Of a stretch of 64,000 nucleotides of DNA, positions 10,681 through 62,317 are shown piece by piece; the first letter of the stretch is position 1, and every line of letters starts with the position of its first letter. The notes below the pieces were generated by a model. That model made no database searches. It was not told the DNA's origin and was given only the letters and a program-made list of their open reading frames with translations. The position numbers and the translations under genes were made by a program. This DNA is from Elusimicrobiota bacterium (GTDB lineage Bacteria; Elusimicrobiota; UBA8919), in contig JAQUMH010000001.1 of the NCBI GenBank assembly GCA_028718185.1, positions 31,186 through 95,185 on the forward strand, in the 5' to 3' direction.

Positions 10681-12237
10681 CTACTTAGCCAGCTCTTGAT
10701 ATCGTGTTTCTCTTATGACTGTTACCTTAATCTGACCCGGATATTCCAGTTCTGTCTCTATTTTTCTTGCAATATCCTGGGCAAGCTGACTTGCCGCAGC
10801 ATCATCAATATCTTCAGGTTCAACTAAAATTCTTACTTCTCTGCCTGCCTGAACTGCATATGATTTTGCAACTCCAATGAATGATTCAGCAACTTTTTCA
10901 AGCCGTTCTATCCTTTTCAAATAATGTTCAAGCGTTTCCCTCCTAACACCCGGACGTGCTGCGGAAATAGCATCAGCAGCCTGTAAAACAAACGCTTCAA
11001 CCGATTCGGGTTGAACAATACCTTCATGATGAGCCAATATTGCATTTATCATTTTTGGAGATTCGCCATACTGTTTTGCAGTATCTGCAGAAAGCTGATG
11101 ATGCGTTCCTTCTACATCCTTATCAACTGCTTTTCCTATATCATGCAGAAGTCCGGCTTTTTTACAAAAATGAACATCAACTCCGAGTTCTGCTGCAAGA
11201 TAACCTGCTATATTTGCGACTTCAAGAGTATGTGACAGCTGGTTCTGACCATAAGATGTTCTGTATTTCAATTTACCGATAAGTTTTGTAATTTCAGGAT
11301 TCAAATTTGTAATACCTACCTCTAAGGATGCATCTTCTCCTGCTGCTTTTATATTTTCGTCCATTTCCTTCTTCACTTGATTAACAACTTCTTCTATTCT
11401 AGTGGGGTGAATTCTTCCATCTGCCATTAATCGTTCAAGCGATATTTTTGCAACTTCTCTTCTAACCCCGTCAAAACTTGATAAAGTAATAGTATCCGGC
11501 GTATCATCAACTATTAAATCAACACCTGTCGCCTGTTCAAATGCGCGTATATTTCTACCTTCCCTTCCAATTATTCTTCCTTTCATATCGTCATTTGGTA
11601 ATGGGACAGTAGATACAGTTATTTCCTGTGTATAGGTATTCGCACAATGTTGAATTGCAATCGCCAGTATCTCTTTTGCTTTTTTTGAAGCTGTTTCTCT
11701 TGCTTCCTGTTCTAATTTTTTTGTTAAAACAGCTGCTTCTTTTCTAGCTTCTTCTTCCATAATCTTCATTAAAACTTTCTTTGCTTCATCACCTGTCATT
11801 TGAGATATTTTCTCAAGTATCTTTTTTTGTTCATCTTTCTGCTGGTTCAATTTAATAAGTTCTAATTCTATTATTTTAGATTTCGAATTAATTTCGGTTT
11901 CTTTTTTTACAATATCTCTTTCTTTTTTCTCGATAATTTCAAATCTTTTATCAAGATTTTCTTCTTTTTGCAAAAGACGCCTTTCAAGATTTGACAATTC
12001 CTGCCGTCTTATTTTTGTCTGTGCTTCAAATTCCTGGCGCTGACGATGCATCTCTTCTTTTATTGATAATTCTCCTTCCCTTTTCTTCGCTTCAGCATTT
12101 TTTTCTGCATCCGTGATAATTTTCTTAGCTAAAGTTTCGGACGATTTTAAACTTTTTTTGGCAATAGAAACTCTAATGAAATATCCAACAATCAAACATA
12201 TAATCGAAGCCGCTAAAACCATTAAAATATTATCCAT
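10681..12237 (-). CDS. rny: Ribonuclease Y
   Basis: N-terminal transmembrane helix, long coiled coil, KH domain (GRIIGREGRNIR), HD domain (LLHDIGK). Confidence 0.95.
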   Translation of the reverse strand: MDNILMVLAASIICLIVGYFIRVSIAKKSLKSSETLAKKIITDAEKNAEAKKREGELSIKEEMHRQRQEFEAQTKIRRQELSNLERRLLQKEENLDKRFEIIEKKERDIVKKETEINSKSKIIELELIKLNQQKDEQKKILEKISQMTGDEAKKVLMKIMEEEARKEAAVLTKKLEQEARETASKKAKEILAIAIQHCANTYTQEITVSTVPLPNDDMKGRIIGREGRNIRAFEQATGVDLIVDDTPDTITLSSFDGVRREVAKISLERLMADGRIHPTRIEEVVNQVKKEMDENIKAAGEDASLEVGITNLNPEITKLIGKLKYRTSYGQNQLSHTLEVANIAGYLAAELGVDVHFCKKAGLLHDIGKAVDKDVEGTHHQLSADTAKQYGESPKMINAILAHHEGIVQPESVEAFVLQAADAISAARPGVRRETLEHYLKRIERLEKVAESFIGVAKSYAVQAGREVRILVEPEDIDDAAASQLAQDIARKIETELEYPGQIKVTVIRETRYQELAK

Positions 12238-12249
12238 TTTTCCTCCTTT

Positions 12250-12828
12250 TTATTCGTTGTTACAAATACAAGCATTTCGCCTGAAAATTCGTTTTTCCGT
12301 AATTACAAAATCCATCGGAACATCTTTTTCTGAAACCGGTATCCTTTTCAAAACCTGAAAACTGTGCGACAAACCAATCTTTACCGTAGAAATATTTTTT
12401 AAAAACTTGTCAAAATATCCTTTACCAAAACCAATTCGATTACATTGTTTGTCAAATACTACACCCGGAACAATCACTGCATCTAAATTAAAGTTGTTTT
12501 TAAGATTATTACCTTTAGTTTCCGGTTCTAAAATCCCATATTTACCTGAAACTAAATTTTTTAAATCTTTAATTTTAACAAGCATTAACTTATTTTTCAC
12601 AATTTTGGGTAAAAAAACGTCCTTCTTTAATTTTAATGAACTTTCTATCATCTTACGAGTATCAACCTCGTTTTTAAAAGATACGTAAAACGATACTCTT
12701 CTGGCATCGCAAAACTCCCTTAGCTTAAAAAGTTTTTTTAATATCTTTTCACTATTTACATCTACTTCCTTTTTATTAATTTCTTCTCTTATTGCTAATA
12801 TTTTTTTCCTGATATCCTGTTTATTCAT
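12250..12828 (-). CDS. 5-formyltetrahydrofolate cyclo-ligase
   Basis: 192 aa; DAVIVPGVVFDKQCNRIGFGKGYFDKFL motif typical of MTHFS/YgfA family. Confidence 0.85.
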   Translation of the reverse strand: MNKQDIRKKILAIREEINKKEVDVNSEKILKKLFKLREFCDARRVSFYVSFKNEVDTRKMIESSLKLKKDVFLPKIVKNKLMLVKIKDLKNLVSGKYGILEPETKGNNLKNNFNLDAVIVPGVVFDKQCNRIGFGKGYFDKFLKNISTVKIGLSHSFQVLKRIPVSEKDVPMDFVITEKRIFRRNACICNNE

Positions 12829-13923
12829 TTACTTATTTTTAAGTTCTTCCGGAACATCAACAATTCTTTCTTTTTCTATCTTTTCAATTTTTTCAAATAT
12901 TTTAGAATATGCTTCTCTGGATTTTTTTGCTAAAGACAAATATATCGTTACCTGAGAAAGTGAAATCTTTGCTTCAGGCATACCGACAAAATCAACTGCT
13001 TTAAGAACTGATGCTGCTAAAACTAATCCCATCGGGTCAGCATTACCAACATCTTCACTGGCAAAAATTACGAGCCGCCTTGCTATAAATCTAGGATCTT
13101 CACCGGCAACTAACATTTTTGCAAGCCAATAAAGAGCATCATCTGCTTTACCGGAACGCATAGATTTAATAAATGCAGAAATGGTATCATAATGACCATC
13201 TCCTTTTTTATCATAGACAACAACCTTTTTTTGAATGGATTCTACTGCAACATCTAAAGAAAATTCAACAAAACCTTCTTTATTTTTCTTTGTCGTTTCA
13301 AAACCTATCTCAACAGCATTCAAAAGCCGCCTGGCATCTCCTTCTGAATATTTTTTTAAATGATTTTTAGCTTCTACTGAAAATATAATTTTTAATTTTA
13401 ACCCGGTACTTTGTAGAATATTTTCTAAATTATCTTCTGAAAGCTTTTTAAATTCAAAAACCTGTGATCTTGACAAAAGTGCAGAGTTAATATAAAAATA
13501 TGGATTTTCAGTTGTGATTCCAATCAAAACGATTACTCCTTTTTCTACATAAGGCAGAAGACAATCTTGTTGCGACTTGTTAAAATGATGTATTTCGTCA
13601 ATAAGCAAAATAGTTTTTTTATCTCTATTTTTCGCTGTATTAATTGTTTTTCTTAAATCATCTACACCGCTTATAACAGCGCTTATTTCCTGAAAATATC
13701 CCGATGTCATATTAGCGATAATCTTTGCTAAAGATGATTTTCCGCTACCGGAAGGACCGTAAAATATAACAGATGAAAGTTTATCCGATACAATTGCCCT
13801 TCTTAATAGCTTGCCTTCCGATAAAATATCTTCTTGTCCCACAAAATCATCAAGTGTCTTGGGACTCATTCTCGATGCTAATGGTTCTTTTCTTTTGATA
13901 TTTTCTTTTTCAAACAAGTCCAT
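12829..13923 (-). CDS. rarA: Replication-associated recombination protein A (AAA+ ATPase RarA/MgsA)
   Basis: Walker A GPSGSGKSS, LLIDEIHHFNKSQQD, GDARRLLN, and conserved C-terminal MgsA domain (ALYWLAKMLVAGEDPRFIARRL). Confidence 0.85.
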   Translation of the reverse strand: MDLFEKENIKRKEPLASRMSPKTLDDFVGQEDILSEGKLLRRAIVSDKLSSVIFYGPSGSGKSSLAKIIANMTSGYFQEISAVISGVDDLRKTINTAKNRDKKTILLIDEIHHFNKSQQDCLLPYVEKGVIVLIGITTENPYFYINSALLSRSQVFEFKKLSEDNLENILQSTGLKLKIIFSVEAKNHLKKYSEGDARRLLNAVEIGFETTKKNKEGFVEFSLDVAVESIQKKVVVYDKKGDGHYDTISAFIKSMRSGKADDALYWLAKMLVAGEDPRFIARRLVIFASEDVGNADPMGLVLAASVLKAVDFVGMPEAKISLSQVTIYLSLAKKSREAYSKIFEKIEKIEKERIVDVPEELKNK

Positions 13924-13994
13924 ATATAGATACTAAAATTACTGAAATATCCGCCACTAAACCGTTGGCGGATTTATCCTTTACGCATTCTGCG

Positions 13995-14165
13995 TAATAG
14001 GATAAAAAAATCCCCGCGAATGCCGTGTGAACAAAATGTTTGAAGCACTACTTACTAAGTGGGTATCCTGTTCAAGTAACCAAAATTACAAGAAACGCAG
14101 ATTCCCAAAATTGTGCTTGTAAGCTCAAAACAGTCTATTCAACACCAACACCGCAGGGAAATTAT
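13995..14165 (-). ncRNA. ssrS: Candidate structured small RNA, possibly 6S RNA (SsrS)
   Basis: 247-bp non-coding gap immediately downstream of zapA; minus-strand 5' CCCUGCGG (about 14150) can pair with CGCGGGG (about 14015) followed by a U-run, enclosing about 140 nt; E. coli places ssrS between zapA and the 5-formyl-THF cyclo-ligase gene. Not verified by covariance model. Confidence 0.25.
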
Positions 14166-14169
14166 AATA

Positions 14170-14457
14170 TCACAAACGTAATGCTGACTCTAAATGCAAA
14201 ATCAACTCATCAACATTTCTATCTAATTCCGTTTCAATATTTTCTTTTTCTTCTTTCAACGCAAAAACTTCCTCCGCTAATGTAATAAGTGTAAGATTTA
14301 GTATCTTCAAAGTATCAGGTGTGTTCTGTTCTTTGCTTACTTCATTCAATTTTTCATTAACATATTTTGCAAGCTGGCTGACAAACAAGGGCTCCATTTC
14401 TGTTTCAATATCAAACTCACTATTCAATATTTTTATAGAAACCCTTTCTTTTGTCAT
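14170..14457 (-). CDS. zapA: Cell division protein ZapA
   Basis: 95 aa; N-terminal beta region (VSIKILNSEFDIETE) followed by coiled coil, ZapA-like. Confidence 0.7.
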   Translation of the reverse strand: MTKERVSIKILNSEFDIETEMEPLFVSQLAKYVNEKLNEVSKEQNTPDTLKILNLTLITLAEEVFALKEEKENIETELDRNVDELILHLESALRL

Positions 14458-14696
14458 TAGATTTTCGCCCTCTCAATGTTTTCTATAATACTTTTTATTC
14501 TACCTTTTATTATATCCCTTTCTTTAACATACTTTCGCACCATTTTATTTTCCTCCTCAAACATATTTACCTTTGAAAGTAATTCTTCATTCATGTCTCT
14601 AAGTTTCTGATTTTCTTTTTTCAAATCACTTATTCTAAACGAAATGCCTTTAACTTTTTCTTTTAACAAAGCAACTTTACTGCCAATCTTATCCAT
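14457..14696 (-). CDS. Small coiled-coil protein, possibly ZapB-like cell-division factor
   Basis: 79 aa, almost entirely heptad-like K/E/L/N-rich sequence; start overlaps zapA stop. Confidence 0.35.
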   Translation of the reverse strand: MDKIGSKVALLKEKVKGISFRISDLKKENQKLRDMNEELLSKVNMFEEENKMVRKYVKERDIIKGRIKSIIENIERAKI

Positions 14697-14788
14697 TACA
14701 CTAAAAAATTATACAAAAATATTTGATTTTGTCAACTCTCTTTTTGGTGATTATTTTTATAATAATTATTTGAACGAAATTGGCTATA

Positions 14789-17700
14789 CTATTTATCAGC
14801 CCAGTCTTTGGCGATTAAAATTGCTTGTTCCAATACTGTTTCGGTTGCTTTTTTCTGTTTATCAGGTGGATACCCATATTTTCTTAAAATTCTTTTTACC
14901 ATTACCCTCAAATTTGCCTGTATATTTTCTCTTATTGTCCAGTCAATAGTAACATTATTTCTCACTGTCTTTATCAGTTCCCTTGCAATTGTTCTCAAGA
15001 TTTCATCTCCAAGAACCTTAACTGCACTGTCATTTACTTCCAAAGCATCATAGAATGCAAGTTCATCTTCAGTTAAATTTAATAACTCACCCCGTTTATC
15101 AGCATCCCTCAACTTCTTTGCTAATTCAATGAGTTCTTCTATAACTCTTGCTGTTTCTATTGCCTTATTCTGATATTTCCGAATCGTCTTTTCCAGCATT
15201 TCCGCAAATGACCTGCCCTGTATTAGATTTCTTTTTGTCCTTATTTTTATTTCGTCATTCAGCAATTTTTTCAAAAGTTCAAACGCTAAATTTTTGTGCG
15301 GCATATTTTTTACTTCCGCCAAAAACTCATCCGAAAGAATTGAAATATCCGGTTTTTTAATCCCAGCTGCTTCAAATACATCAATCACTTTATCAGAAGT
15401 AATTGCTTTTGATATTATCTGTTTTATTGCCGTATCAAGTTCTTCTTCTGTTTTACCACCACCCACTTCAAACTTCGCAATTCTTGACCTTACCGCTTGA
15501 AAAAAACCTACATTGTCTCTAATCTCAAGTGCCTTTTCATTCGGGACGGCAAGGGCAAACGCCTTTGATAACTGCGAGACATAATTCAAAAATCTTTCTT
15601 TTCCCTTCTCTTTTTCCTTGCCTAATATAAATTCGGCCGCTTCAGCCAATATGCCCATCTTTTCTCTTACACCAACAGTGAAAAACTTCTTATAATCAAA
15701 TTTACCTGCCTCGCCAACAGGCGGGACGAACATGCCACAAACGATTTCGTATTTTTCAAGCATAACTGCAACTGCTTCTCTCTGGTCAAAAGTGGGCTTC
15801 CCTTCTCCGCCACTTTCTGTATAGATTGAAAGTGCTTCTTTCAAATCGGCTGCAATGCCTAAATAGTCAACCACGAGTCCACCGGGCTTATCTTTGAAAA
15901 CCCTGTTCACTCTTGCTATCGCCTGCATAAGACCGTGCCCGCGCATCGGCTTGTCAATATACATCGTATGCAAACAAGGAACATCAAATCCCGTAAGCCA
16001 CATATCTCTCACAATTGATAGCTTAAGCGGGTCGCTGTCATCTTTCATTCTGTTGCCTATTTCTCTGCGTCTCTGTTTATTTCTTATATGTTCCTGCCAA
16101 CCAACATCATCACTTGCAGAGCCGGTCATTATTATTTTAAGAAAACCTTTGTCATCGTCTTTGTGATACCAATCGGGACGGAGTTTTATAATCTCATTAT
16201 GCAGTTCAATACAAATACGCCTACTCATACAGACAATCATTCCTTTGCCATCAAGCACTTTTAGACGCTCTTCAAAATGTTCTACAATATCTTTTGCAAT
16301 CTGTTTAATCCTTTTTTCACTGCCAATGATTGCCTCAAGCCGAGCCCATCTTGTTTTTAACTTCTCTTTTTTCTTTACTTCTTCGAATTCGGTCACTTCT
16401 TCGAATTCAGGGTCAATTTTAGGTCGCTCTTCTGCTTTTAACTCAAGTTTAGCAAGACGGTTTTCATAAAATATTCTGACTGTGGCACCATCTTTAACTG
16501 CCTGCTCAATATCATAAACATCAATGTAATCGCCAAAAACTGCAATCGTATTCCTGTCAGTTTTTTCTATAGGCGTTCCGGTAAATCCTATAAATGAAGC
16601 ATTCGGCAATGCATCCCGCATATGCTTTGCGAAACCATCTATAAAATCATACTGACTTCTGTGTGCCTCATCTGCAATAACTACTATGTTTCGTCTTTCA
16701 GACAACAATTGGAAACGGTTTGCATTTTCTTCAGGGAAAAATTTTTGTATTGTTGTAAATACAACACCACCGGATGCAACTTTTAAATATTCTTTAAGTT
16801 CATCTCGTGTTTCTGCCTGTACCGGCTCTTGCCTTAAAAGTTCCTGACACCTGCAAAAAGTACCATACAATTGGTCATCTAAATCGTTTCTATCTGTAAG
16901 AACGACAATAGTCGGATTATCCATCCTAAGAACAAGTTTGCCGGTATAATATGCCATTATTAAACTTTTCCCTGAACCCTGAGTATGCCACACAACACCG
17001 CACCGTTTGTCGCCTTTCTTACTTGATGCTTTAATCGTTGATTCAACCGCCTTATTTACCGCATAATATTGGTGATATGCTGCTATCTTTTTGGAAGTTT
17101 TAATTTGCTCATTTTCAAAAACAATAAAATGTCTAATTAAATCAAGAAGAACTTTTTTATTCAGCATCCCTTTCAATAGCACTTCTATCTGCGGAACAGT
17201 TGCCGGTTCTTTTTCTGTGCCATCAATTGTTTTCCAAGGCAAAAACCTCTCCCAATCAGAAGTTATTGTCCCTGCTCTTGCTTCATTGCCATCACTTATT
17301 ATAAGGATTTCGTTGTAATTGAAAACGGAAGGTATTTGTGTTTTGTAGGTTTCAAATTGCTTGAATGCCGATTTTATAGTAGCGTTTTCATCAGCAGGAT
17401 TTTTTAATTCAATGACAACTAACGGCAAACCATTCACAAAAATAACAATATCGGGACGCCTGTTGTTATTATTTTCTATAACTGTAAATTGATTTACTGC
17501 TAAAAACTCATTATTGTTGATATTCTTAAAATCAAAAAGCCATACTTTATCACCAACAATTTTTCCCACCTTTTTATATTCAACATCAACACCGTTAACC
17601 AAGAGTTTATGGAAATTATGATTATTTACAATCAGGTTAGGGGTTTTGTCTCTCAATACTTTTTTAAGGACTTCTTCTTGGGCAGTTTTTGGAACCTGTG

Positions 17701-17890
17701 GATTTAACCTGTCAATTGCTTCCATTAACCGCTCAATCAAAACAGAATTGAAATAATCATCTCTTTCAGGTCTCGTGCCATCAACAGCAATATCCGGACC
17801 ATAAAGTGTCTTATATCCCAATTCTTTTAATATGTCCAATGATAACTGTTCAATTTCCGATTCGGTGATTATGTGTGGCATATTTTTCAA
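14789..17890 (-). CDS. hsdR: Type I restriction enzyme R subunit (HsdR)
   Basis: 1033 aa; N-terminal nuclease region, SF2 helicase motifs (TQGSGKS, DEAH-like [10 protein letters not shown]). Confidence 0.95.
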
Positions 17891-17893
17891 TGT

Positions 17894-18658
17894 TTATGAA
17901 ACTAATTCTTGCCTTATTGCTTCTCTCTCACTCCAAATTACTGGATTAACTCCATAATTAAACAGTGCTTCAATAACCGAAGGCATAGTTTTTTGTTCTG
18001 AATCATTTAAGAAAGCATAAGCTTTAGAATTAGTAGGTCTAACTTCCTTGGTATCAATCCAAGAAAAAGCAAGAGCTTGTGCAGTATCTTTATTGGGTCT
18101 ATTTATTGTTTGAATAATTCTTTCCGGTTGCCTTTTTGATGCAGGAATTACAAAGTCAAATAAATGGTCATAACCGCTTTTCCCAGTAAATTTAATCCTC
18201 GGAGTATATCTAATATCATTTATATTCATCCAAGAAGTAACATCTTCAAAAAACAAACTGGCAACCATAGGTGCAGCTAAATAAAATAAATCATTTATTG
18301 CTAACATAGCCTGTACCAAATTATGCTTTTTTAATGAAAAGTTTTCAGATGAAGCATGCAAAGTTAAAGATTTTTCTTGCATTTTAACGCCAAAACCGTT
18401 TAATGTTAATAGAAGAAGATCCTTGCGTTTTTTACTATCTAATTCACAGCCCGATTGCATAAGATCAGCAATGGTATAGCCATCATCTGTTAAAATATAA
18501 CCATTATTATCCCGCTTAACATATATTTGTAAATAATCATTGTGTCTATCCAAATAAGGAGTCGTTATTTCGACCCAATCTTCTACTTGACGTAAAGCTG
18601 TTTTATCTTTCAACCAATTTAAGTAATTATCCAAAAGCTTTTGTATTTCGTCTATCAT
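17894..18658 (-). CDS. Uncharacterised protein embedded in type I R-M operon (from memory resembles DUF1828/DUF1829-type proteins)
   Basis: 254-aa ORF; ATG overlaps stop of upstream 151-aa ORF (ATGA), and it ends 4 nt before hsdR start; no catalytic motif recognised. Confidence 0.5.
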
Positions 18659-19110
18659 GAAAATAACCCCCTCTCTATGTTCGGTGGTTCTATTATATTA
18701 CATAATATCATAAAATCGCTCAAGGTTTGCCATAAATCAGAAATATTTGGGAATCTGTCAATTGGCAAAGGTACTGCCCACTTATCACCAAATCCTTCAC
18801 GATAATAATGTAAATGTGGTGATGCTATTTCTTGCCCATCAGGATTCCTATGAGGCTGTCCACCAAAATCTAATCTAACAAGTATTACTACTTGTTGTGC
18901 ACGATTTTGATATGAACCTTTTAGTAAGTCAATTCTACCTCTGCTAATATCAAGCATAAAGTTCTCACGTTTGTTTACAGAAGTTATAGGAACGCGTATT
19001 TGTCCACCATATCCAGGGTATTCCCAACTTACATCATTGACTTTTACTTTTTCCATTGCTATCAAAGTATTCGCTTCGGTTTGAGGTAAATTAATTTCAG
19101 GCATTTGCAC
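18655..19110 (-). CDS. Uncharacterised protein embedded in type I R-M operon
   Basis: 151-aa ORF overlapping hsdS 3' end by 14 nt and coupled to the following 254-aa ORF; contains PHLHYYREG and HRNPDG segments of unknown significance. Confidence 0.5.
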
Positions 19111-20290
19111 TCCTTTTTATTCTTATCTTTCCTGACATTAGTTTTGGTAAAAGAGAATCACAAATATCGTTTAATTTTTTATTTTCTCGCAAATTCTCTA
19201 ATATTTGCTGCATGATAGGCTCAATTACCTTATGAAACTTTTTCATTATGAAATCATTTGGAACAACAATACTTATTCGCGCAAAATTTCCTGTATTAAG
19301 ATTCAATGTAGCTGTTCCCCCAAGTCCCATAGTTTTTATTTCTTCACTTTTGTTCAACATAGAAAAATACATAAAATATGGACTAATTTCTTTTTTACAA
19401 ATAATGCTATTTATTTGTTGATTTGTCTGACTAACTTCACTTGTAAGTGATACTAAACCTGGAGTAGCTATACAACTGACACAGACAGATAACGCAGATA
19501 AATATTTATTTTTTTGTAAATCAGCCCCTTGTTTTGAAAGTATTTTTTCTGTTTTAATTACAAAAACAAAATTACGCATATCAGGAATAGTAATGAACGG
19601 TATATCTGCTCCATAATTATCTCTATTTATAGTTGCAGGAGTTTTTCCGCAAATAATATCACCACAGTCTTTTATTTCTTTTTTCCCCCATCCATCAGGT
19701 AAACCATTTTTAAATTTTGTTTTTTCATAGTCGGGGAAACGGAAAGCAATAAACCACTCCTTGAATATTGCCTGAGCTATTGACTCAAGGGTTTTATTCA
19801 TCTGGTTATTTAGTTCTATCTTTTCATCAAGGTCAGAAAGAATTTTTGCAATCGCCCGCTGTTCATTGAACGATGGTATATGTTTTTTTATTTCATACAC
19901 GTAATCACGATTAAGTCCGGGAACTGCTGAATGACTATTCATTTCAGTAAGATTTAATGTTTTAAGAAAATAATACCAAAACAATATGTCGTTTTCTCCT
20001 TTTGTTTTTACGTAATATGTTGTATCAATAGGCCAAAAATCAGTTTTTGAAAATGTAACTTGTCCAACAGTGCCTTTCCTGCCAATAATAATTCCAGGTC
20101 CTTTTACAAGTGCTTCATTATGCTGACCAATAATACCATTTGAACCATAGACCGATATATCACCACCTTTTCTCTCTCTTGTTATAAGCCCATCACCATA
20201 AACTAACTCAATATTATTTCCAACAGATGATTCTTCCCATCCTTCGGGAATTGCACCAATTTCTGTTTGTTTGAATTTATTCTTTTCCAT
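19097..20290 (-). CDS. hsdS: Type I restriction-modification specificity subunit (HsdS)
   Basis: Two target-recognition domains separated by conserved spacer; ORF track begins at 20347 but likely start is the internal Met (MEKNKF...) at 20290, just after the HNH gene stop. Confidence 0.85.
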   Translation of the reverse strand: MEKNKFKQTEIGAIPEGWEESSVGNNIELVYGDGLITRERKGGDISVYGSNGIIGQHNEALVKGPGIIIGRKGTVGQVTFSKTDFWPIDTTYYVKTKGENDILFWYYFLKTLNLTEMNSHSAVPGLNRDYVYEIKKHIPSFNEQRAIAKILSDLDEKIELNNQMNKTLESIAQAIFKEWFIAFRFPDYEKTKFKNGLPDGWGKKEIKDCGDIICGKTPATINRDNYGADIPFITIPDMRNFVFVIKTEKILSKQGADLQKNKYLSALSVCVSCIATPGLVSLTSEVSQTNQQINSIICKKEISPYFMYFSMLNKSEEIKTMGLGGTATLNLNTGNFARISIVVPNDFIMKKFHKVIEPIMQQILENLRENKKLNDICDSLLPKLMSGKIRIKRSANA

Positions 20291-20297
20291 ATTGTAT

Positions 20298-20990
20298 TTA
20301 ATTAGTTGCGATTGTCTTACATTTTTTACAAAAACATCCCGGGTCATGAAAACCTATCTGCATAATAAGTTTGTCCCAGAACAGCATACCCCAGAAGTGA
20401 AATTTATTTAACTCGGGAATAATAATATATTTATAATCAAATACTGCTGGATACTGCCCTTTTGATGAGATATTACGTATATACTCAAACTCCAAATCAG
20501 GTCTTTGTCCTTCTGAGTAAATCTTGTTAATACGCGGTGTTCTATCAGGAAGAAACTGTCCGCATTCTTTAAAAAATAACCCTCTTGTAATTTTCCAAAC
20601 CACTCTCCAAACACGCTCGCCATTGAATCGTTTTAGTACTTTATTATATGGTAAAATAAGCCCTGACGGCCTTGTTTCAAATTCTTTAAAAACCATTTTG
20701 TGAAGACGACTACCTGCGGGACGCTTTCTTCTGCATACAATATCCTTCCAAATTTCGCTTCCTGTATCTGATTCCATTGTTAATGGAGCTATAGAATGAA
20801 CAAAATAGTCTTCATCTATCTGGTATGGTTCATGACATTTGCGATGAACCGGCAAAGTAAATAAATTTGGGGAATCTTTCTTCCTAACACGGGTCGCATA
20901 AAATTGTTTCGGAGGAACGTGGTCTTTATCTACTTTACCCGATAGCATATTACCGCACAAGTAACATATTTCTATTTCTTTTTTAGCCAT
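20298..20990 (-). CDS. HNH-motif endonuclease-like protein
   Basis: CYLCG...DKDHVPP...VHRKCH arrangement consistent with an HNH/zinc-finger nuclease core; C-terminal CFCKKCK; lies between yhcG-like gene and hsdS. Confidence 0.55.
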   Translation of the reverse strand: MAKKEIEICYLCGNMLSGKVDKDHVPPKQFYATRVRKKDSPNLFTLPVHRKCHEPYQIDEDYFVHSIAPLTMESDTGSEIWKDIVCRRKRPAGSRLHKMVFKEFETRPSGLILPYNKVLKRFNGERVWRVVWKITRGLFFKECGQFLPDRTPRINKIYSEGQRPDLEFEYIRNISSKGQYPAVFDYKYIIIPELNKFHFWGMLFWDKLIMQIGFHDPGCFCKKCKTIATN

Positions 20991-20992
20991 TG

Positions 20993-22132
20993 CTATTTTT
21001 TTATTTTGTTTGTGCTTTTACTCAACTCTTTCTCAATTTGTTTTATTGTTGGTAGATTCGATTTGAATTTCTTGGGTAAAGAATGTGTTAATTGATATTC
21101 AGAAACACCAATTGGCTTATGAATATCGCTTAAAGCATACTCAGCGACCACTTTATCTTTGGTTTTGCAGATAATTATTCCGACAGTCGGTTGGTCGAAT
21201 TCACTTCTCAACTGGCGGTCTACTGCAGTAATATAAAAATTCAATTTTCCGGCAAACTCCGGTTGAAATACCACAGTTTTTAGTTCTATCACGATATAAC
21301 AACGCAATTTAATATGATAAAAAAGCAGGTCTATGTAGAATTCACTTTCACCTACACGCAATGGAATTTGCCGTCCTACATAAGAAAAACCGGTTCCTAA
21401 TTCCAATAGAAACTTTGCAATATGCTCAATAAGAGCATTCTCCATGTCTTTTTCATTGTATTCTTCGGTTAACCTTAAAAAGTCAAAAATATAGGGGTCT
21501 TTGAGTGTTTGTTTGGCGAGGTCAGATTGGGGTTTAGGCAGTGTAAGAGAAAAGTTATTAACCGCCTTGCCTTCTCGTTTGAAAAGTCCCCATTCAATCT
21601 GGTGAACTAATACAGAGCGGCTCCAATTGTGCGTAATTGTTTTTTGAACATAATAAATTGCTTCTTTTATATTCTTACATTTTGTTATAATTGCGATGTT
21701 ATGACCCCAAGGTATCTGGGTGATTTGTGCAACGGCTTGTTGCACAAATTGTCCGACAGACTTTTGGATAATTCTGTTTATTGGCAATTGGGCAACAGCC
21801 TGTTGCCCAATTAAGCCAACAGGCTGTTGGCTTATCGCATTTCCCCGGCTATAAAACTGATACCATTGCTTGATATATTTAAGATTTCTAAGTGAGAATC
21901 CCTTCATATCCGAAAACTCTGCTGTTAAATCCTTGCTAAGCTGAATTAGAAAACCGCCACCCCATTTGGTGTTTGCCTGTTTAGCCACAATATCTGCACC
22001 AAGCTCCCAATAAAAGGAGAGCATTTCTGAATTAACTTTTACCGCTGCTTTAATCTGGGCGTTACGGACTTTTGCTTTTAAATCAGCAAGCCAAACTTTG
22101 TATTCCTTATCAAATACTAAATTAGATTTCAT
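20993..22132 (-). CDS. YhcG-like PD-(D/E)xK nuclease (DUF1016 family)
   Basis: QIPWGHN N-terminal motif and C-terminal [10 protein letters not shown]...IVIELK PD-(D/E)xK core; overlaps hsdM stop by 11 nt. Confidence 0.8.
21725..21835 (-). repeat. Three in-frame near-perfect palindromes inside the yhcG-like coding sequence
   Basis: TTGTGCAACGG/CTTGTTGCACAA (21725-21747), AATTGGGCAACAG-C-CTGTTGCCCAATT (21786-21812), AAGCCAACAG-G-CTGTTGGCTT (21814-21834); encode repeated QQAVAQ peptide. Confidence 0.6.
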
Positions 22133-23729
22133 ATCCCAGTCCTTTTAAATTTTTCTTTATTTCTTTTTCAAGTTCTTCGGATTTTTCAAACTGTTCTGAA
22201 AGTTCTTTGGTAAGTCGTTTCATTTTTTCATTAAACTTTTCTTTATCTTCTTCCACTTCTTCGGTGCCTACATATCTACCGGGTGTCAAAATATAACCCT
22301 GTGATTTTATTTCTTCAAGTGTTGCCGATTTGCAATAACCTTTTTCATCTTTATACTTGCCCGCCGACGTCCCAGTGGCGGGTTTACCTTCTCCCCGCCA
22401 TGCATGATATGTATCAGCAATTCTATTTATCTCTTCTTCAGTTAATTCCCTGTGCCTGCGGTCTATCATTACGCCCATTTTCCGAGCATCAATGAAAAGA
22501 ACTTTGCCCCTTCTGTCTTTGAATTTGTGATTTTTCTTATCGCGAGCAATAAACCAAAGACAGGCGGGTATCATTACATTGTAGAAAAGTTGTGATGGCA
22601 AAGAAACCATACAATCCACTATGTCTGACTCAAGCATATTTTTTCTTATTTCACCTTCATTTGACTGGTTAGAAGACATAGAACCGTTTGCTAATACAAA
22701 GCCTGCAATACCTTTTGGCGATAGATGATAAACAAAATGCTGAACCCATGCGAAGTTGGCATTACCTGTCGGAGGGACACCGTATTTCCATCTCACATCA
22801 TCTCTTAATTGCTCGCCCTTCCAATCACTGTCATTAAATGGTGGATTGGCTAATATAAAATCTGCTTTTAAATCTTTATGTTCATCTTTTAAGAAACTGC
22901 CTTCATTATTCCACATTATATTTGCATCTATACCACGGATTGCTAAGTTCATTTTACAGAGACGCCATGTGGTTTGATTGGATTCCTGTCCATTGATAGC
23001 AATATCACCTAATTTACCACCGTGTGCTTTTACAAATTTTTCGCTTTGAACGAACATACCACCGGAACCACAACACGGGTCAAAAATACGACCTTTATAT
23101 GGCTCCATCATTTCCACAAGTAATTGCACTATGCTCCGCGGAGTATAAAATTGCCCGCCTCGTTTACCTTCCGAATCTGCAAACTGCCCTAAGAAATACT
23201 CATAAACTCTACCCAAAATATCTTTACTGCGATTTTCGTAATCTCCTAAACTAATTGTACCTATAAGGTCTATTAGTTCACCAAGACGCTGTTTATCAAG
23301 TTTAGGGTCTGCATAATTTTTAGGAAGAACACCCTTAAGGGTTGGATTTTCCTTTTCTATAACATACATTGCGTCATCTATGATTTTACCTATTGTGGGT
23401 TGTTTTGCATTTTTCTGTAGGCGTGACCAGCGGGCTTTTTCCGGGACATAAAACACGTTTACGGCTTTATATTCGTCTCTGTCTTCAATTGTCTCATAAC
23501 GCACTTCGGGTTCTTTTATATATTGATTGCTTTTTGGATTAGAAACTTCTTTTACAAGTATTTGATAATGTTCTTCGAATGCGTCGGAGATATACTTAAG
23601 AAAAATCAATCCTAATACAATATGTTTATACTCAGCAGCATCCATATTGTTCCGCAGTTTATCAGCTGCTTTCCACAGTTTTTCCTCAAAACCAAGATTT
23701 CCACCATTTGAATTATCTTCTTTTTTCAT
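22122..23729 (-). CDS. hsdM: Type I restriction-modification DNA methyltransferase subunit (HsdM)
   Basis: 535 aa; N6-adenine MTase motifs including NPPFN and SAM-binding region. Confidence 0.95.
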
Positions 23730-23967: not shown

Positions 23968-26358
23968 TTACCTTAATTTTGTTTGGAATTTATTTTCAAG
24001 TTGTAAAACAATCTTTTTTACAACCACATCCACTTCTTCATCTTTTAATGTCCTGTCTGATAATCTAAATCTTATTCTAAAAGTAAGTGATTTATATCCT
24101 TCCTTAATTTGTTTTCCGGTATAAAAATCACATACGCTCACATCAACAGGAATATTAGACGCTTTTTCTTTTATAGCATTACATATTTCTACTGCAGGAT
24201 ACTGTTGAGATACTTCAATTGAAATATCCCTTTCTATAAACGGATATTTGGGAATATGTACGTATTTCCTCTCAAAACCGGCAGAACAAATAAGCTTATC
24301 TAAATCCAACTCAAAAACATATAAACAATCATTTTTAATATCTTGTTTTTTTATTACTTCAACATTGAGCAATCCAAAACTTCCGACATTATTGTTTTCT
24401 ATTAAAATATCTGCTGACTGATTTTGCTGAAACATTTCTTTGTCAGATTTTTTATACTCCCATGACTTAACCCCAATTTCCCTGAATAGTCTCTCAATAA
24501 AACCTTTTAAAAAATAAAAATCTACTGCAACAGCTTTTTCTTTCCACCAGTCATATTCCGAACCTAAAATACATCCTGAAAAAAATGTTTTTTCTTCCTC
24601 CCCAAAAACCTTTCCAATCTCAAATATTCTTATATCTTTATTACCTCTATTAATATTTCTTACCACAGTTTTTACCAGTCTTGGGATAAGCGATATTGAC
24701 AAAAACGGTTCTTCTAAAGATATAGGATTGGCAACTTTTCTTGCGCCTTCTGCCAACGTAAAAACAGCAAAGTCATCTTTAGATATAAAATTATAATTAA
24801 TCGTTTCATAAAATCCCACTGACACTGCAGTATTTCTTACTTTATCTATAACCTTTTCTGATTTATTTAAAACAATATCTGTTCTGAATGTTATTTTATC
24901 GCTTGTTTTTATTTTATCATAACCAAAAATACGAACGATTTCTTCTATTAAATCAAAATCTGTTTTGACATCGTTCCTGTGAGAAGGAACGGTTACAGAA
25001 AGTAAATAGGGGACAGGAAGCCCGCCACTAAACATTGGCGAGGCAGGCAAGAAGCAAGAAAAACCAAGGCGGGATAGAATATCCCTTATTGCATCAATTG
25101 AAATATCTATGCCTAATATTTTATTTACCCTGTCGGCATCAAGTTCTATTTTAATTAATTCTTTTTTATTTGAATATTTGTCAATCATACCGCCGGAAAT
25201 TTCGCCGCTGCAATTTTTTTTAATCATTTCCGATGCTATCATTCCTATATTTGAAATATTTTCCATATCGACCCCTCTTATAAATCTATAAGACGAATCT
25301 GTGGAAATTCCAAGTTTTTTTGAGGTTTTGCGTATAGAAATAGGATTAAAACATGCTACTTCTAAAAATACATTTTTAGTATTTTCAGAAACGGCTGTAG
25401 GCTCACCACCGATTACACCTGCAATAGCAATAGGGTCTTTTTCATCGGCAATCACAAGCATTTCTTCATCAAGACTATATTCCTTATTATCAAGTGCTAA
25501 AATCTTCTCATCCTTTTTAGCATTTCTGATAACAATTTTTCCCTTTATTTTTTCAATATCAAATGCATGCAGCGGTTGTCCATATTCAAATAGAATATAA
25601 TTTGTAATATCAACAACATTATTTATTGTTCTTAAACCACAACCTTCTATACGGTCAATAAGCCATTGCGGAGATTTTCCTACTTTTATATTTTTTATAA
25701 TAAATCCAACATATCGAGGACAATCTTTCGTATTTTCTACAACTACGGGAAAAATATTCTCTACTTTAATATCATAATCCCCTATCTCTTTCTTTAATTT
25801 TTTATTTAGTATTGCGGAAATCTCCCTTGCAATTCCAAAAACCGATAAACAATCACCCCTGTTTATTGTAACTTCAGTTTCAACATAAGAATCCTTATTC
25901 AGATATTCATTAATCGGGACACCAAGATTTACATCCGGAGGCAGAAGCAAAATCCCGGATGAATCATTACCAATTTTAAGTTCAGATTCTGAACAAAGCA
26001 TACCTTCTGATTCAACCCCGCGAAGCACAGCTTTTTTTATTTCACCTGCTGGCAACTTTGCCCCAATTTTTGCCAGCGGTACAATATCATCAACTTTCAT
26101 ATTTTTAGCACCGCAAACAATTTTGTAATTCTTCTGACCGTCGGTAACACTGCATATTGAAAGCTTATCTGCATTAGGATGTTTTTCTATTGATAAGATT
26201 TTTACAACAACAACATTTCTATCAATTGAAACACATTTAACAGGTTTAGTTTCAATCCCTGACATTGTAAGAAGGGAAGATAATTTTTCGGCATCAATAT
26301 CAACATCAATAAAATCCGACAGCCATTTTAATGAAATTATCATAATAGTATTATACAA
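23968..26358 (-). CDS. pheT: Phenylalanine--tRNA ligase beta subunit
   Basis: 796 aa; N-terminal tRNA-binding domain (LKWLSDFIDVD...), B3/4 and B5 regions. Confidence 0.95.
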   Translation of the reverse strand: MYNTIMIISLKWLSDFIDVDIDAEKLSSLLTMSGIETKPVKCVSIDRNVVVVKILSIEKHPNADKLSICSVTDGQKNYKIVCGAKNMKVDDIVPLAKIGAKLPAGEIKKAVLRGVESEGMLCSESELKIGNDSSGILLLPPDVNLGVPINEYLNKDSYVETEVTINRGDCLSVFGIAREISAILNKKLKKEIGDYDIKVENIFPVVVENTKDCPRYVGFIIKNIKVGKSPQWLIDRIEGCGLRTINNVVDITNYILFEYGQPLHAFDIEKIKGKIVIRNAKKDEKILALDNKEYSLDEEMLVIADEKDPIAIAGVIGGEPTAVSENTKNVFLEVACFNPISIRKTSKKLGISTDSSYRFIRGVDMENISNIGMIASEMIKKNCSGEISGGMIDKYSNKKELIKIELDADRVNKILGIDISIDAIRDILSRLGFSCFLPASPMFSGGLPVPYLLSVTVPSHRNDVKTDFDLIEEIVRIFGYDKIKTSDKITFRTDIVLNKSEKVIDKVRNTAVSVGFYETINYNFISKDDFAVFTLAEGARKVANPISLEEPFLSISLIPRLVKTVVRNINRGNKDIRIFEIGKVFGEEEKTFFSGCILGSEYDWWKEKAVAVDFYFLKGFIERLFREIGVKSWEYKKSDKEMFQQNQSADILIENNNVGSFGLLNVEVIKKQDIKNDCLYVFELDLDKLICSAGFERKYVHIPKYPFIERDISIEVSQQYPAVEICNAIKEKASNIPVDVSVCDFYTGKQIKEGYKSLTFRIRFRLSDRTLKDEEVDVVVKKIVLQLENKFQTKLR

Positions 26359-44168: not shown

Positions 44169-44238
44169 ATAAATACCACGGAACCGACACGGAACTAATA
44201 CACGGAACTTTTAGCGTTCTTTTCCGCATCCTACTGTT

Positions 44239-45707
<1,469 letters not shown>

Positions 45708-48291: not shown

Positions 48292-48309
48292 TTTCTAACT
48301 TTCTCCTTC

Positions 48310-48450
48310 TATTCATCGCGGAGCGAAGGAGTTGTTGAGCAGAACTTCACGGAGTCCCGCTTAAAACATTCAGCGGGACGAGTGAGAGTGCCCCGACGTA
48401 ACGTCGGGGACAACGGTTCTGCGAAACAAGCTTCCGAACGCATATTACTT
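48310..48450 (-). repeat. Intercistronic hairpin repeat element, copy A1 (atpH-atpA spacer)
   Basis: Shares about 110 bp with copy A2 (GAGTTGTTGAGCAGAACTTCACGGAGT.CCGCTTAAAACATTCAGCGG.ACGAGTGAGAGTGCC...GGTTCTGCGAAACAA); two internal hairpins; 3' terminus overlaps last codons of atpH. Confidence 0.65.
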
Positions 48451-53376: not shown

Positions 53377-53394
53377 AAACCCCCCATCGCATAG

Positions 53395-53507
53395 CGAGGG
53401 AGTTGTTGAGCAGAACTTCACGGAGTTCCGCTTAAAACATTCAGCGGAACGAGTGAGAGTGCCAGCACAGGCTGGACACGGTTCTGCGAAACAATCTCCC
53501 GAGCGAT
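53395..53507 (-). repeat. Intercistronic hairpin repeat element, copy A2 (ilvB-ilvH spacer)
   Basis: Near-identical to A1 with compensatory changes in both hairpins; ends immediately after ilvB stop codon. Confidence 0.65.
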
Positions 53508-53509
53508 TT

Positions 53510-55237
53510 TTATGCTAGACTCGTTATAATTTCATCCAATGCTGCGCCTGCGGGAACCATCGGAAAAACATTCTCTTCTTCCTCAACTAAAAAATCCATA
53601 ACTACCGTTTTTTCTATCTTTAACGCTTTTATAAGAGTATTTTCAACATCTTCCTTTTTTGTAACTCTTATACCAACAGCGCCATATGCTTCGGCAAGTT
53701 TTACAAAATCAGGTATCATCAATGGTGACCTCTTAAAAGAAAGTTCTGAAGCAAGACACCCGTTTGGTTTTGCTAAACATACAGCAGAATATCTTTTCTT
53801 ATAAAACATTTCCTGCCATTGACGAACCATTCCCAAACAATTGTTATTTAAAATAACAATTTTCACGTTTATATTATTCAGGACTGCGGTTGCAAGCTCC
53901 TGTATATTCATTTGTATAGAACCGTCGCCTGCAATATCAATAACCGTTTTTTTAGGATTAGCTATTTTAGCTCCGATAGCCGCAGGAAAACCATAGCCCA
54001 TCGTCCCAAGCCCGCCGCTTGACAAAAAATGCCGGGGATACTTTGGTTTATAGAACTGTGCAGACCACATCTGGTTCTGACCCACTTCCGTAACAACAAT
54101 CGCTTCGCCTTTCGTTATCTCTGAAATTTTATCGATAATATATTGCGGACGAAGTTTATTATCTTTTTTATATGAAAATGGATTTGCTTTTTGCCATTCT
54201 GATATTTTTTTAAGCCAATCTTTATTGTTTTTCTTATTCACATACTTTAAAAGTTCAGTAATAACATTTTTTGCATCACCGACAATAGGTATATCAACCA
54301 TAACATTTTTAGAAATTGAGGTTGGGTCGATATCAATATGGATTATTTTGGCTTTTGGTGCAAAAGCAGAAAGCTTTCCCGTTACCCTGTCATCAAATCT
54401 TGCACCGATTGCTATTATTAAATCGCAATTCTGGAATGCGTGGTTAGCTGCATAATTTCCATGCATGCCCGGCATATAAAGATTCAATGGATGATCCGGA
54501 GGAAAACATCCTATTGCCATTAGAGTTGTAGTAACCGGCGTATGTATTTTTTCAGCAAGTTTCAAAAGTTCGGTTGAAGCATCTGATGAAACTATTCCGC
54601 CGCCTACATACAACAATGGCTGTTTAGCAGAGTTTATCATATCTGCAACTTTCTTTATTTGTCCGATATGACCCGAATAAACCGGTTTATATGAACGTAT
54701 ATCTACTTTTTCAGGCCAGACAAACTCTGTAGTTGCTCTTTGAATATCAGCGGGAATATCTACAAGAACCGGTCCCGGTCTGCCGGTTTTTGCAATATAA
54801 AACGCTTCACGTATTGTTCTTGCTAAATCTTTAACATCTTTTACTAGAAAATTATGTTTAGTAACAGGTCTGGTTATACCTGTTGTATCAGCTTCTTGAA
54901 AAGCATCATTTCCTATAAGTGTTGTTACTACCTGTCCGGTAAATGCAACAACCGGAATTGAATCCATGTTTGCTGTTGCAAGCGCAGTAGTTAGATTTGC
55001 TGCTCCGGGCCCGCTAGTTGCAATACAAACACCAACATCACCTGTAGATCTGGCATACCCGTCAGCCATATGCCCGGCACCCTGTTCATGTCGTGTCAAA
55101 ACAAACTTTATTTTATCCCTTGCGTCAAATATTTTATCAAAAATCGGAAGCACCTGTCCACCCGGAATTCCAAATAACACTTTGACATTTTCTTTTAAAA
55201 GACATTCAATAAATATTTCAGCCCCGGTTTTTATCAT
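53510..55237 (-). CDS. ilvB: Acetolactate synthase large subunit
   Basis: TPP-enzyme motifs, 575 aa. Confidence 0.95.
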   Translation of the reverse strand: MIKTGAEIFIECLLKENVKVLFGIPGGQVLPIFDKIFDARDKIKFVLTRHEQGAGHMADGYARSTGDVGVCIATSGPGAANLTTALATANMDSIPVVAFTGQVVTTLIGNDAFQEADTTGITRPVTKHNFLVKDVKDLARTIREAFYIAKTGRPGPVLVDIPADIQRATTEFVWPEKVDIRSYKPVYSGHIGQIKKVADMINSAKQPLLYVGGGIVSSDASTELLKLAEKIHTPVTTTLMAIGCFPPDHPLNLYMPGMHGNYAANHAFQNCDLIIAIGARFDDRVTGKLSAFAPKAKIIHIDIDPTSISKNVMVDIPIVGDAKNVITELLKYVNKKNNKDWLKKISEWQKANPFSYKKDNKLRPQYIIDKISEITKGEAIVVTEVGQNQMWSAQFYKPKYPRHFLSSGGLGTMGYGFPAAIGAKIANPKKTVIDIAGDGSIQMNIQELATAVLNNINVKIVILNNNCLGMVRQWQEMFYKKRYSAVCLAKPNGCLASELSFKRSPLMIPDFVKLAEAYGAVGIRVTKKEDVENTLIKALKIEKTVVMDFLVEEEENVFPMVPAGAALDEIITSLA

Positions 55238-59880: not shown

Positions 59881-59899
59881 AAATACACCTAATAACGGC

Positions 59900-59933
59900 G
59901 TTCACGTGTTCACGTGTTGATATGTTCACGTGT
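59900..59933 (-). promoter_or_regulatory. Three tandem TTCACGTG units upstream of lysC
   Basis: TTCACGTG at 59901-59908, 59909-59916 and 59925-59932, 20-50 nt upstream of the lysC start codon; each contains the CACGTG palindrome. Confidence 0.35.
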
Positions 59934-60009
59934 AAATTGCTAATAGAAAGTTAAAAATTTTATTAAGACTTTTAAAGAGCATATAATCCTTACAAATCAA
60001 AGCGAAGTA

Positions 60010-60100
60010 AGAAATTTCTGAAGAGCCTGAATTTGCGACTTATTTTTTCCAGGAGCAAATGTTAGAGCGACCACAAGGGAGCGTCTCAAAGAAATTTACT
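60010..60100 (-). repeat. Intercistronic repeat element, copy B1 (thrB-lysC spacer)
   Basis: About 85 bp nearly identical to B2 (GAAATTTCTGAAGAGCCTGAATTTGCGACTTATTTTTTCCAGGAGCAAATGTTAGAGCGACCACAAGGGAGCGTCTC); terminus overlaps thrB stop. Confidence 0.65.
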
Positions 60101-61015
60101 TACGAGCACACCTTTATTATCAAAATCACAAACGATATATTTTGACTTAATTCTATGTCCTGCAAACGCTCTTTGCATTGATTTCCCGATGCCAACTGAT
60201 AGACGCTGACTACTGAGCGATAATATAGTAGAACCACTACCGGAAATACAAACACCGTAAGCACCTGATTTTTTGGCAGAACTGAAAACTTCTTCCATTC
60301 CCGGAATTAGTTTTTTTCTATACGGCTGATGTAGTCTGTCTTCCATAGCTGTCCCTAGTAGATTATATTTTTTTTGAATGATTGCCGATAAAAAAAATCC
60401 GACTCTGCTTGAATTAAAAACTGCATCTTCACGACTTATCATTTTTGGTAAAATTTTTCTTGCCTTATCTGTTGAAACTTCAAAATCAGGAATACAAAGA
60501 ACTGCCTTTAAATCACCTGGCATTTTTATCTTTGTACATTTTATATCTTTTCCATTATAATTGCAAACACAAAGTCCGCCAAAAAGCGAAGGAACTACAT
60601 TATCGGGATGCCCTTCAAGTTTCGTGACCATCTGTATAATTTCATTATCTGAAAGTTTACTACCGCAAATTTTATTTGCTGCAATAAATCCGCCAAGTCG
60701 TGCGGCAGCCGAACTTCCCAATCCCCGTGCAAGAGGAATATGATTAATAAACCGTATATGTAATGTGTTATGTGTAATATGTAATATATCGAAAACCTTT
60801 TTCATCGCCTGCCAAACAATATTTTTTTCATCTCTTGGAAGTTTCTCTTCCCCTTCACCTTCAATATCTATTTTTAGACCTCGGACATTGGACTTCGGAC
60901 ATTGGACGATATTTACTTCTATCTCATTATAAAGTTTTAATGCAGCCCCGAGCACATCATATCCGGCACCAAAATTTGATGTCGTAGCCGGAATTTTAAT
61001 TTTTATTTTGTTCAT
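60086..61015 (-). CDS. thrB: Homoserine kinase
   Basis: GHMP kinase motif [11 protein letters not shown]. Confidence 0.85.
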
Positions 61016-62142: not shown

Positions 62143-62157
62143 ATATAAACCTTAAAG

Positions 62158-62240: not shown

Positions 62241-62317
62241 AATCGCAAAACAAGTTACATATTTTATCTTCTCTTCATCGCGAAGCGAGAAACAAACCTT
62301 ATCCACGCTTAATCGCG

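Follow-up and report, generated by a model that had tools for sequence, protein, structure and literature searches.

Background

The small 6S RNA resembles an open promoter and sequesters RNA polymerase; in Escherichia coli it is a processed RNA that is cotranscribed with ygfA. In E. coli K-12, zapA, ssrS (the 6S RNA gene) and fau (ygfA, encoding 5-formyl-THF cyclo-ligase) follow one another on one strand. 6S RNAs and promoters are competitors for the housekeeping holoenzyme; a 6S RNA is released through the transcription of a short product RNA, or pRNA (PMC4793215). Two genomic neighbourhoods have been described: ygfA adjoins the 6S RNA gene in several proteobacterial classes and in some Firmicutes (PMC9130861), and rarA adjoins it in nearly all lactic acid bacteria and at the 6S-1 gene of Bacillus subtilis (PMC8414754). 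In the lactic acid bacteria rarA is found 5' of a monocistronic 6S RNA gene that has its own promoter and terminator, and in B. subtilis rarA lies on the strand opposite to 6S-1 (PMC8414754), whereas at the locus described here rarA lies 3' of the 6S RNA gene and on the same strand. Our literature search found no paper that links 6S RNA with Elusimicrobia.

A 6S RNA gene between zapA and rarA

The locus is part of a 64-kb stretch of DNA from an Elusimicrobiota contig, which was analysed as a whole and is called the window below. The stop codon of zapA ends at 14170 and the ATG of rarA is at 13923, which leaves a non-coding gap of 246 bp (13924..14169). A preliminary description of this DNA had recognised the gap, with a length of 247 bp, and had named the flanking genes; Pfam bears out all three of them (ZapA, RarA/MgsA and 5-formyl-THF cyclo-ligase). 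Its comparison of the locus to the E. coli zapA-ssrS-ygfA arrangement was accurate when checked against the E. coli gene order, and its proposal of a 6S RNA in the gap, to be examined with the Rfam model RF00013, led to a full-length match over the curated threshold on the predicted strand.

We scanned the whole window against the 4227 families of Rfam 15 at their gathering scores. The 6S/SsrS family, RF00013, gave the sole gathering-level match in the 64 kb, on the minus strand at 14162..14007, covering the full model (positions 1-187) with 64.0 bits against a gathering score of 46.4 and E = 2.5e-10 (E = 3.1e-12 when the search is restricted to the local region). A second 6S copy in the window was sought and rejected, as none appears at the Rfam gathering level or with our own model R1 (see below). 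Other Rfam families considered for the gap, at E values up to 10, were chance-level partial matches (NsiR4, 16.9 bits; Chlorobi-RRM, 15 bits), both of them on hairpin 2. Judged from its sequence, the zapA-rarA gap holds an ordinary 6S RNA of a well-known family, of the kind that a standard model finds. The coordinates of the gene, its parts and its neighbours are collected in Table 1; the real 3' end of the RNA probably lies inside the U-run at 14010..14004.

Table 1. Features of the 6S RNA locus and of the tRNA-linked palindrome copies. Positions are those of the window unless a locus is named.
Feature	Position	Strand	Details
zapB-like coiled-coil gene	14457..14696	-	79 aa; PF06005, 25.3 bits, under its cut-off; overlaps the zapA start
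Sigma-70 promoter, TTGACA-16-TATAAT	14708..14735	-	Consensus match 12/12; 5' of the zapB-like gene
zapA	14170..14457	-	95 aa; PF05164, 48.7 bits
6S RNA gene (ssrS)	14007..14162	-	156 nt by the Rfam bounds
Closing stem, 5' strand, nt 4-15	14148..14159	-	UCCCUGCGGUGU; pairs with 14024..14010
Central bubble, 5' side	14107..14122	-	UUACAAGCACAAUUUU; unpaired in the Rfam consensus structure
Terminal stem-loop, shortened	14061..14106	-	5 nt vs 32 in the Rfam consensus
Central bubble, 3' side	14046..14060	-	ACUUAGUAAGUAGUG; preceded by conserved ACCCAC
U7 run	14004..14010	-	Directly past the closing stem; possible leaky intrinsic-terminator tail or 3' end
Hairpin 1	13974..14005	-	UUAUCCU-A-UUACGCA GAA UGCGUAA AGGAUAA; absent from the preliminary description
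Hairpin 2, copy of a REP-like palindrome	13949..13973	-	Core CCGCCAACGGTTTAGTGGCGG at 13971..13951
rarA/mgsA, short form	12829..13923	-	364 aa; PF12002, PF16193, PF00004; 3' of the 6S RNA, same strand
5-formyltetrahydrofolate cyclo-ligase gene (fcl; ygfA/fau homologue)	12250..12828	-	PF01812, 153 bits
RNase Y gene (rny)	10681..12237	-	PF12072, PF01966, PF00013; last conserved gene of the cluster, by synteny
tRNA-linked palindrome copies	L082:1078-1250, L086:5889-6060, L117:2889-3060, L183:1-160, L186:1480-1660, L122:5990-6250		tRNAs Thr, Lys, Gln, Arg

Structure and covariation

The 156-nt stretch has a minimum free energy of -53.8 kcal/mol, against a mean of -34.6 for shuffled sequences (z = -5.1), and none of 200 shuffles folds as low. 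Applied to an alignment of 12 sequences, RNAalifold returns 34 pairs, which make up the closing stem, an extended internal stem, an open central bubble and the base of the terminal stem. The central bubble between helices that had been anticipated for a 6S RNA is thus open in the alignment fold, but the minimum free energy fold of the single sequence partly closes it. In the same 12 sequences, whose mean column identity is 63%, 16 of the 34 pairs have changed on both sides, i.e., in a compensatory manner. Paired cells amount to 91.2%, compared with 82.5 ± 0.9% when the partners are shuffled among sequences, and the covariation score is 0.278 as opposed to 0.126 in the shuffles; not one of 500 shuffles reaches any of the five covariation measures. 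If the partners are slid by 1-3 columns the pairing drops to 35-51%, a control that is somewhat favourable given that the structure was derived from the same alignment; the independent Rfam structure agrees with it save for a shift of one position. Eight of the 44 pairs assigned by Rfam are non-canonical in the window 6S RNA, but it retains its closing stem, internal stem and bubble, and the conserved blocks CCCUGCG, UGAGC..AC, ACCCAC, CACGGCA and GCGGGG are all present.

Positions C5, C7, U8, G9 and C10 of the closing stem are invariant in the 12 sequences. The pairing of CCCUGCGG (14158..14151) with CGCGGGG (14018..14012) had already been noticed, with a separation of about 135 nt that in fact is 140 nt, and the outer closing stem is made up of this pair both in the Rfam alignment and in the alignment fold. 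The U-run reported to follow CGCGGGG is there as well, and a U-rich tail occurs in all 12 aligned homologues and in three further loci (L203, L205 and L206), with U6-U8 in the close relatives. The U-G pairs at columns 8/175 and 15/167 are invariant; read from the opposite strand they would become C-A, which fixes the coding strand, in agreement with synteny. Compensatory change is also seen in the terminal stem, in five of the seven pairs of columns 59-66/116-123.

6S RNA and gene order in related genomes

RarA was used to fetch 80 rarA loci from GTDB species representatives. Among the 20 related loci that were searched with Rfam, 11 carry a 6S RNA above the gathering score directly 5' of rarA and on the same strand. 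A covariance model of our own (R1), built from the 12 aligned sequences, matches 16 of 81 sources counting the window, i.e., 15 other rarA loci, always on the rarA strand; it finds no 6S RNA in the rarA loci of Verrucomicrobia or Chloroflexi. Rfam missed four of these 15 syntenic loci. At the R1 loci other than the window, the cyclo-ligase gene comes after rarA (by tblastn) in all but L065. RNase Y follows as well, with L065 and L072 as exceptions, and most of the loci show zapA on the 5' side. Four more close relatives, obtained by exact protein look-up, have the order pheT - zapB-like - zapA - 6S - rarA - fcl - rny, and their 6S RNAs score 137-147 bits with R1.

Shortened 6S-like elements were observed 5' of rarA at L041:2342-2455 (114 nt), L052:2244-2326 (83 nt) and L036:2407-2492 (86 nt), and L072:2264-2446 was grouped with them as an element at the syntenic rarA position. 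In such elements the closing stem and the U-run are kept, the terminal stem and the greater part of the bubble are missing, and Rfam gives no match at its gathering score. Decay of 6S genes may account for them, or they may have been kept for a terminator function; the existence of shortened versions in three related loci indicates that the 6S element can decay in this group.

The RarA of the window is 100% identical to a protein of an NCBI 'Elusimicrobia bacterium' MAG. Its Pfam MgsA_C match ends at profile position 108 of 167, and a short RarA is common to the closest relatives (364-383 aa), with 430-460 aa in more distant ones. Fusions of RarA with the cyclo-ligase, of 627-630 aa, occur in some relatives (P0030, P0031 and P0095). 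A rarA-fcl fusion was considered for the nearest lineage in which the two look fused (L005) and rejected, since there they are two ORFs 3 nt apart.

Putative operon context

The zapB-like gene is kept 5' of zapA in L001-L003 and L203-L206. The sigma-70 promoter that precedes it in the window (14735..14708) has equivalents before the zapB-like gene in L001, L002 and L003; it is the sole convincing promoter and likely that of the operon. From the zapA stop codon to the 5' end of the 6S RNA there are 8 nt here and 2-20 nt in the relatives. On the other side, the spacer between the U-run and rarA ranges from 24 to 83 nt, and in L205, where the rarA ATG stands only about 24 nt past the U-run, there is no room for a rarA promoter. 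The promoter and terminator scan found neither a minus-strand promoter nor a classical terminator in the gap. A TATAAT at 14166..14161 was considered as a 6S promoter and rejected, being too near the invariant closing-stem bases for an intact closing stem. As no dedicated promoter was found, the 5' end of the 6S RNA is uncertain, and a promoter inside the 3' end of zapA may be an alternative source of the transcript.

The spacing and the promoters suggest that the zapB-like gene, zapA, 6S, rarA, fcl and rny form a single transcript. With the 6S RNA starting 8 nt past the zapA stop codon, and with rarA only about 25 nt past the U-run in some relatives, excision from a polycistronic transcript is its most likely origin, so that the RNA is probably cut out of the zapB-like/zapA/6S/rarA transcript. 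Such a transcript would resemble the processed, ygfA-cotranscribed 6S RNA of E. coli.

Upstream of the operon, a block of about 9 kb on the minus strand (14789-23729) holds the type I restriction enzyme gene hsdR (14789-17890) and six further ORFs, and separates pheT (23968-26358) from the zapB-like gene, zapA and 6S. Four close relatives have the zapB-like gene within about 55 nt after pheT, and in the light of this adjacency the block resembles an inserted restriction-modification island 5' of the operon promoter.

Alternative readings of the element

One alternative takes up the possibility, raised in the preliminary description, that the gap merely holds the rarA promoter; it adds a zapA terminator and supposes that AT-rich, self-complementary sequence produced the Rfam match by chance. 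A TCAACA-18-TATAAT can be read on the plus strand at 14139..14168, along with a -10-like TATAAT. However, the minus-strand promoter scan of the gap is empty, and in some relatives a rarA promoter cannot fit. With 4227 families searched over the whole window the match has E = 2.5e-10, and it recurs at the same position, with compensatory changes, in 15 other GTDB loci and 4 more. The Rfam match, its recurrence and the covariation effectively refute this explanation, to which we assign a negligible probability.

One could also suppose that the element acts mainly in cis, with the closing stem and U7 serving as a terminator or attenuator that ends zapB-zapA transcription and doses the read-through to rarA-fcl-rny, and that its likeness to 6S RNA is secondary or vestigial. 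The position of the element is as this supposition would have it: it shares the strand of its neighbours, begins 8 nt past zapA and leaves only 24-83 nt to rarA. Every close relative has U6-U8 after the closing stem, and L052 and L036 retain little beyond closing stem and U-run. A terminator, however, would not need the bubble sequence or the internal and terminal stems, which are conserved and covarying, and the full Rfam model is matched over threshold in 12 genomes. We regard a mainly cis-acting element as very unlikely, while a cis role is compatible with that of a trans-acting 6S RNA and probably additional to it. A genuine 6S RNA (SsrS) gene within an operon, with hairpin 2 standing apart from it, is the best overall explanation, and we hold it with high confidence.

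Predicted function and product RNA

By homology, the RNA would fold as a long irregular helix whose large central bubble imitates an open promoter. In this form it would bind RNA polymerase carrying the housekeeping sigma factor and sequester the enzyme when growth slows, and release would follow when the polymerase copies the 5' side of the bubble into a short product RNA. The predicted template region has UGAGCUUAC, with UGAGC just 5' of the bubble segment UUACAAGCACAAUUUU, and within it A43 and C44 are nearly invariant (C44 in 11 of the 12 sequences) and A45 is invariant. The E. coli pRNA starts at U44, and window C44 and E. coli U44 share Rfam model position 45. From this alignment we predict a G-initiated pRNA, 5'-GUAAGCUCAAAACAG..., whose first G is opposite C44 (window 14119), as compared with an A at U44 in E. 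coli. The predicted window pRNA, GUAAGCUCAAAAC, resembles that of B. subtilis 6S-1, GUUCGGUCAAAACU. The B. subtilis 6S-1 pRNA likewise starts with G (PMC4793215).

As for expression, the sigma-70 promoter is predicted to drive the zapB-like gene, zapA, 6S, rarA, the 5-formyl-THF cyclo-ligase gene and the RNase Y gene. The closing stem and U7 would be at most a leaky terminator, with read-through into rarA-fcl-rny. The hairpin before rarA stands outside the 6S RNA; on this reading, a dispersed REP-like palindrome was inserted there later.

Comparison with known 6S loci

The E. coli 6S RNA belongs to the same Rfam family, where it scores 139.8 bits (64.0 for the window 6S RNA). The two share the layout of closing stem, bubble and terminal stem and the UGAGC template motif, and zapA, 6S and the cyclo-ligase gene follow in the same order on one strand. 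They differ in that the window 6S RNA has 156 nt and a much shorter terminal stem (184 nt in E. coli), in the distance from zapA to 6S (8 nt here and 41 nt in E. coli), and in that the window locus has rarA between 6S and the cyclo-ligase gene, the zapB-like gene before zapA and RNase Y after the cyclo-ligase. The 6S RNA genes of lactic acid bacteria and that of B. subtilis 6S-1 (bsrA) are likewise closely linked to rarA (PMC8414754). The genes by which 6S neighbourhoods are known, ygfA/5-FCL or rarA, are both found here: the window and related loci have the arrangement zapA-6S-rarA-fcl.

The Elusimicrobia locus unites both known 6S neighbourhoods, ygfA/zapA and rarA, in one putative operon, and the order zapB-zapA-6S-rarA-fcl-rny may be the ancestral one behind the proteobacterial zapA-ssrS-ygfA and the Firmicute rarA-6S arrangements. 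An operon that holds both neighbourhoods and RNase Y argues that the linkage of 6S RNA to replication-restart and folate-salvage genes is ancient and not lineage-specific. The annotation also places a standard global regulator of transcription in a lineage of uncultured Elusimicrobia with a small genome, the contig being about 0.97 Mb long, and the gene order can serve as a synteny anchor for finding 6S RNAs that are divergent or decayed.

Hairpins in the spacer before rarA

Two hairpins are found between the 6S RNA and rarA, and the segment that contains both (13924..14012) folds with -28.9 kcal/mol (z = -5.5). Hairpin 1 is unique to this genome: it has no other copy in the window and is absent from the spacers of the relatives, and in the fetched loci there is one chance-level match with 2 mismatches (L142). 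Hairpin 2 had been placed correctly in the preliminary description, at 13971..13951, although it has six Watson-Crick pairs, or eight with the flanking AU/AU, and not seven. It had been listed there with the 6S candidate, within a gap that was said to be free of repeat elements. The hairpin lies outside the 6S RNA, and its 21 nt are not specific to this locus but belong to a widely dispersed family of palindromes, so that the gap does hold a repeat element.

A locus-specific hairpin that regulates rarA, as a terminator, a processing site or a stabiliser of the mRNA 5' end, would be a competing explanation of hairpin 2. The identical 21-mer does occur in the same gap of L003, which also has a second variant (L003:894-914 and 983-1003), and the hairpin in the same gap of L002 shares the TCCGCC/GGCGGA stem; moreover, a moderately U-rich tail follows hairpin 2 on the rarA strand. 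Against this, hairpin 2 fails the criteria of the terminator scan, and it is missing from L001, L205 and L206, whose short, unstructured spacers resemble empty sites. The family is present in other contexts in at least 120 unrelated metagenome contigs, where it shows no orientation bias (20 vs 23) and forms tandem arrays and doublets of alternating orientation. We therefore consider a regulatory hairpin specific to this locus improbable, and follow hairpin 2 below as a member of the dispersed family.

Hairpin 2 was also considered as a repeat within the window and rejected: the sole other CCGCC..GGCGG match, CCGCCGACGTCCCAGTGGCGG at 22361..22381 on the plus strand, lies inside a 535-aa ORF (22122-23729) and is probably coincidental coding sequence.

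A dispersed family of palindromes

At least 120 metagenome contigs (L081-L200) carry the pattern Y-CCGCCAAMGSTTYAGTGGCGG-R, also written Y-CCGCCAANGNTTYAGTGGCGG-R, between unrelated flanks. The hosts range from 32 to 63% GC among the matches listed, and named cluster members place some of them in Elusimicrobia, Omnitrophota and Desantisbacteria. A match from Pseudomonas, on a GC-rich contig beside biotin-synthesis genes, is probably a chance match in coding sequence. About two thirds of the distinct copies (77 of 111 among the matches listed, by a crude ORF call) lie between genes. Tandem and composite forms include an array of four palindromes with a 27-nt period (L153), doublets of alternating orientation (L144 and L149) and nested palindromes in which several 5' arms are followed by several 3' arms (L098, L152, L154 and L171).

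Several assignments of the family were tried and rejected. For a phage or plasmid motif, there is 1 match among 2.9 million viral contigs and none that is real across 7.3 Gb of plasmid sequence. For an insertion-sequence end, the 745 ORFs clustered around 125 copies gave no recurrent neighbour, the top family being found at 9 of 120 loci; individual copies have no transposase beside them, no transposase-like family recurs near these 125, and the neighbour families that were scanned are housekeeping ones (ABC-F ATPase, tadA-like deaminase, radical SAM proteins and ferredoxins). Nor does it behave as a strand-specific RNA motif, since 20 copies point one way and 23 the other when compared with co-directional flanking genes (p = 0.76).

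Among the matches listed, 20 of 125 copies have a tRNA gene no more than 150 nt away, and 16 of the 20 are upstream of that gene. At the six tRNA-linked loci of Table 1, a direct repeat of 15-35 nt, made up of leader and tRNA nt 1-13, precedes the palindrome and always ends at tRNA position 13/14; L122 has three such repeat copies, one of which is followed by a different hairpin. The pattern looks like repeated insertion in the D-arm region with regeneration of the 5' part of the tRNA.

In form, the family is close to the REP/BIME/REPIN elements of proteobacteria: a short imperfect palindrome of about 23 nt, mostly extragenic, that occurs as singlets, tandem arrays or clusters, and inverted doublets of alternating orientation. 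It differs from them in that hosts of 32-63% GC, from three or more candidate phyla, have nearly the same sequence, while a REP is usually species-specific; in its low density here, with one intergenic copy in the 64 kb; and in that some copies are located at tRNA position 13/14 and come with the 5' part of the tRNA directly repeated, which to our knowledge is no known property of REPs. No RAYT (Y1 HUH transposase) gene was identified around the 125 copies, and a single-copy gene could lie elsewhere in the genome. In a literature search the palindrome sequence appeared only as unrelated primers, no account of the element came up, and none of the results listed tied REPs to these phyla. From form and distribution, we would describe the hairpin 2 family as a REP/BIME/REPIN-like palindrome, with tentative membership. 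It is conceivable, though we are inclined to doubt it, that the palindrome is an undescribed mobile element spread across Elusimicrobiota, Omnitrophota and Desantisbacteria, with copies that seemingly insert into the loops of earlier copies. If true, a palindrome mobile across phyla would imply a trans-acting enzyme or a mechanism conserved across phyla. This family is the only part of the locus with real potential for novelty, and as a cross-phylum palindrome it may merit a study of its own.

In L101 (1249-1269) the palindrome stands directly before GAGGAAAGTCCGAGCTCC, at the position of helix P3 of bacterial RNase P RNA, where it takes the place of the hairpin that immediately precedes the GAGGAAAGUCC box.

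Other repeats in the window

Iteron-like runs of GTTCACGTGTTCACGTGTTGATATGTTCA, and a 102-nt repeat whose copies are 95% identical and 2.3 kb apart, were observed at 59881-59943, 62140-62249, 60006-60107 and 62323-62424. Further repeat families are located at 44231-44285, 48306-48447 and 53385-53512.
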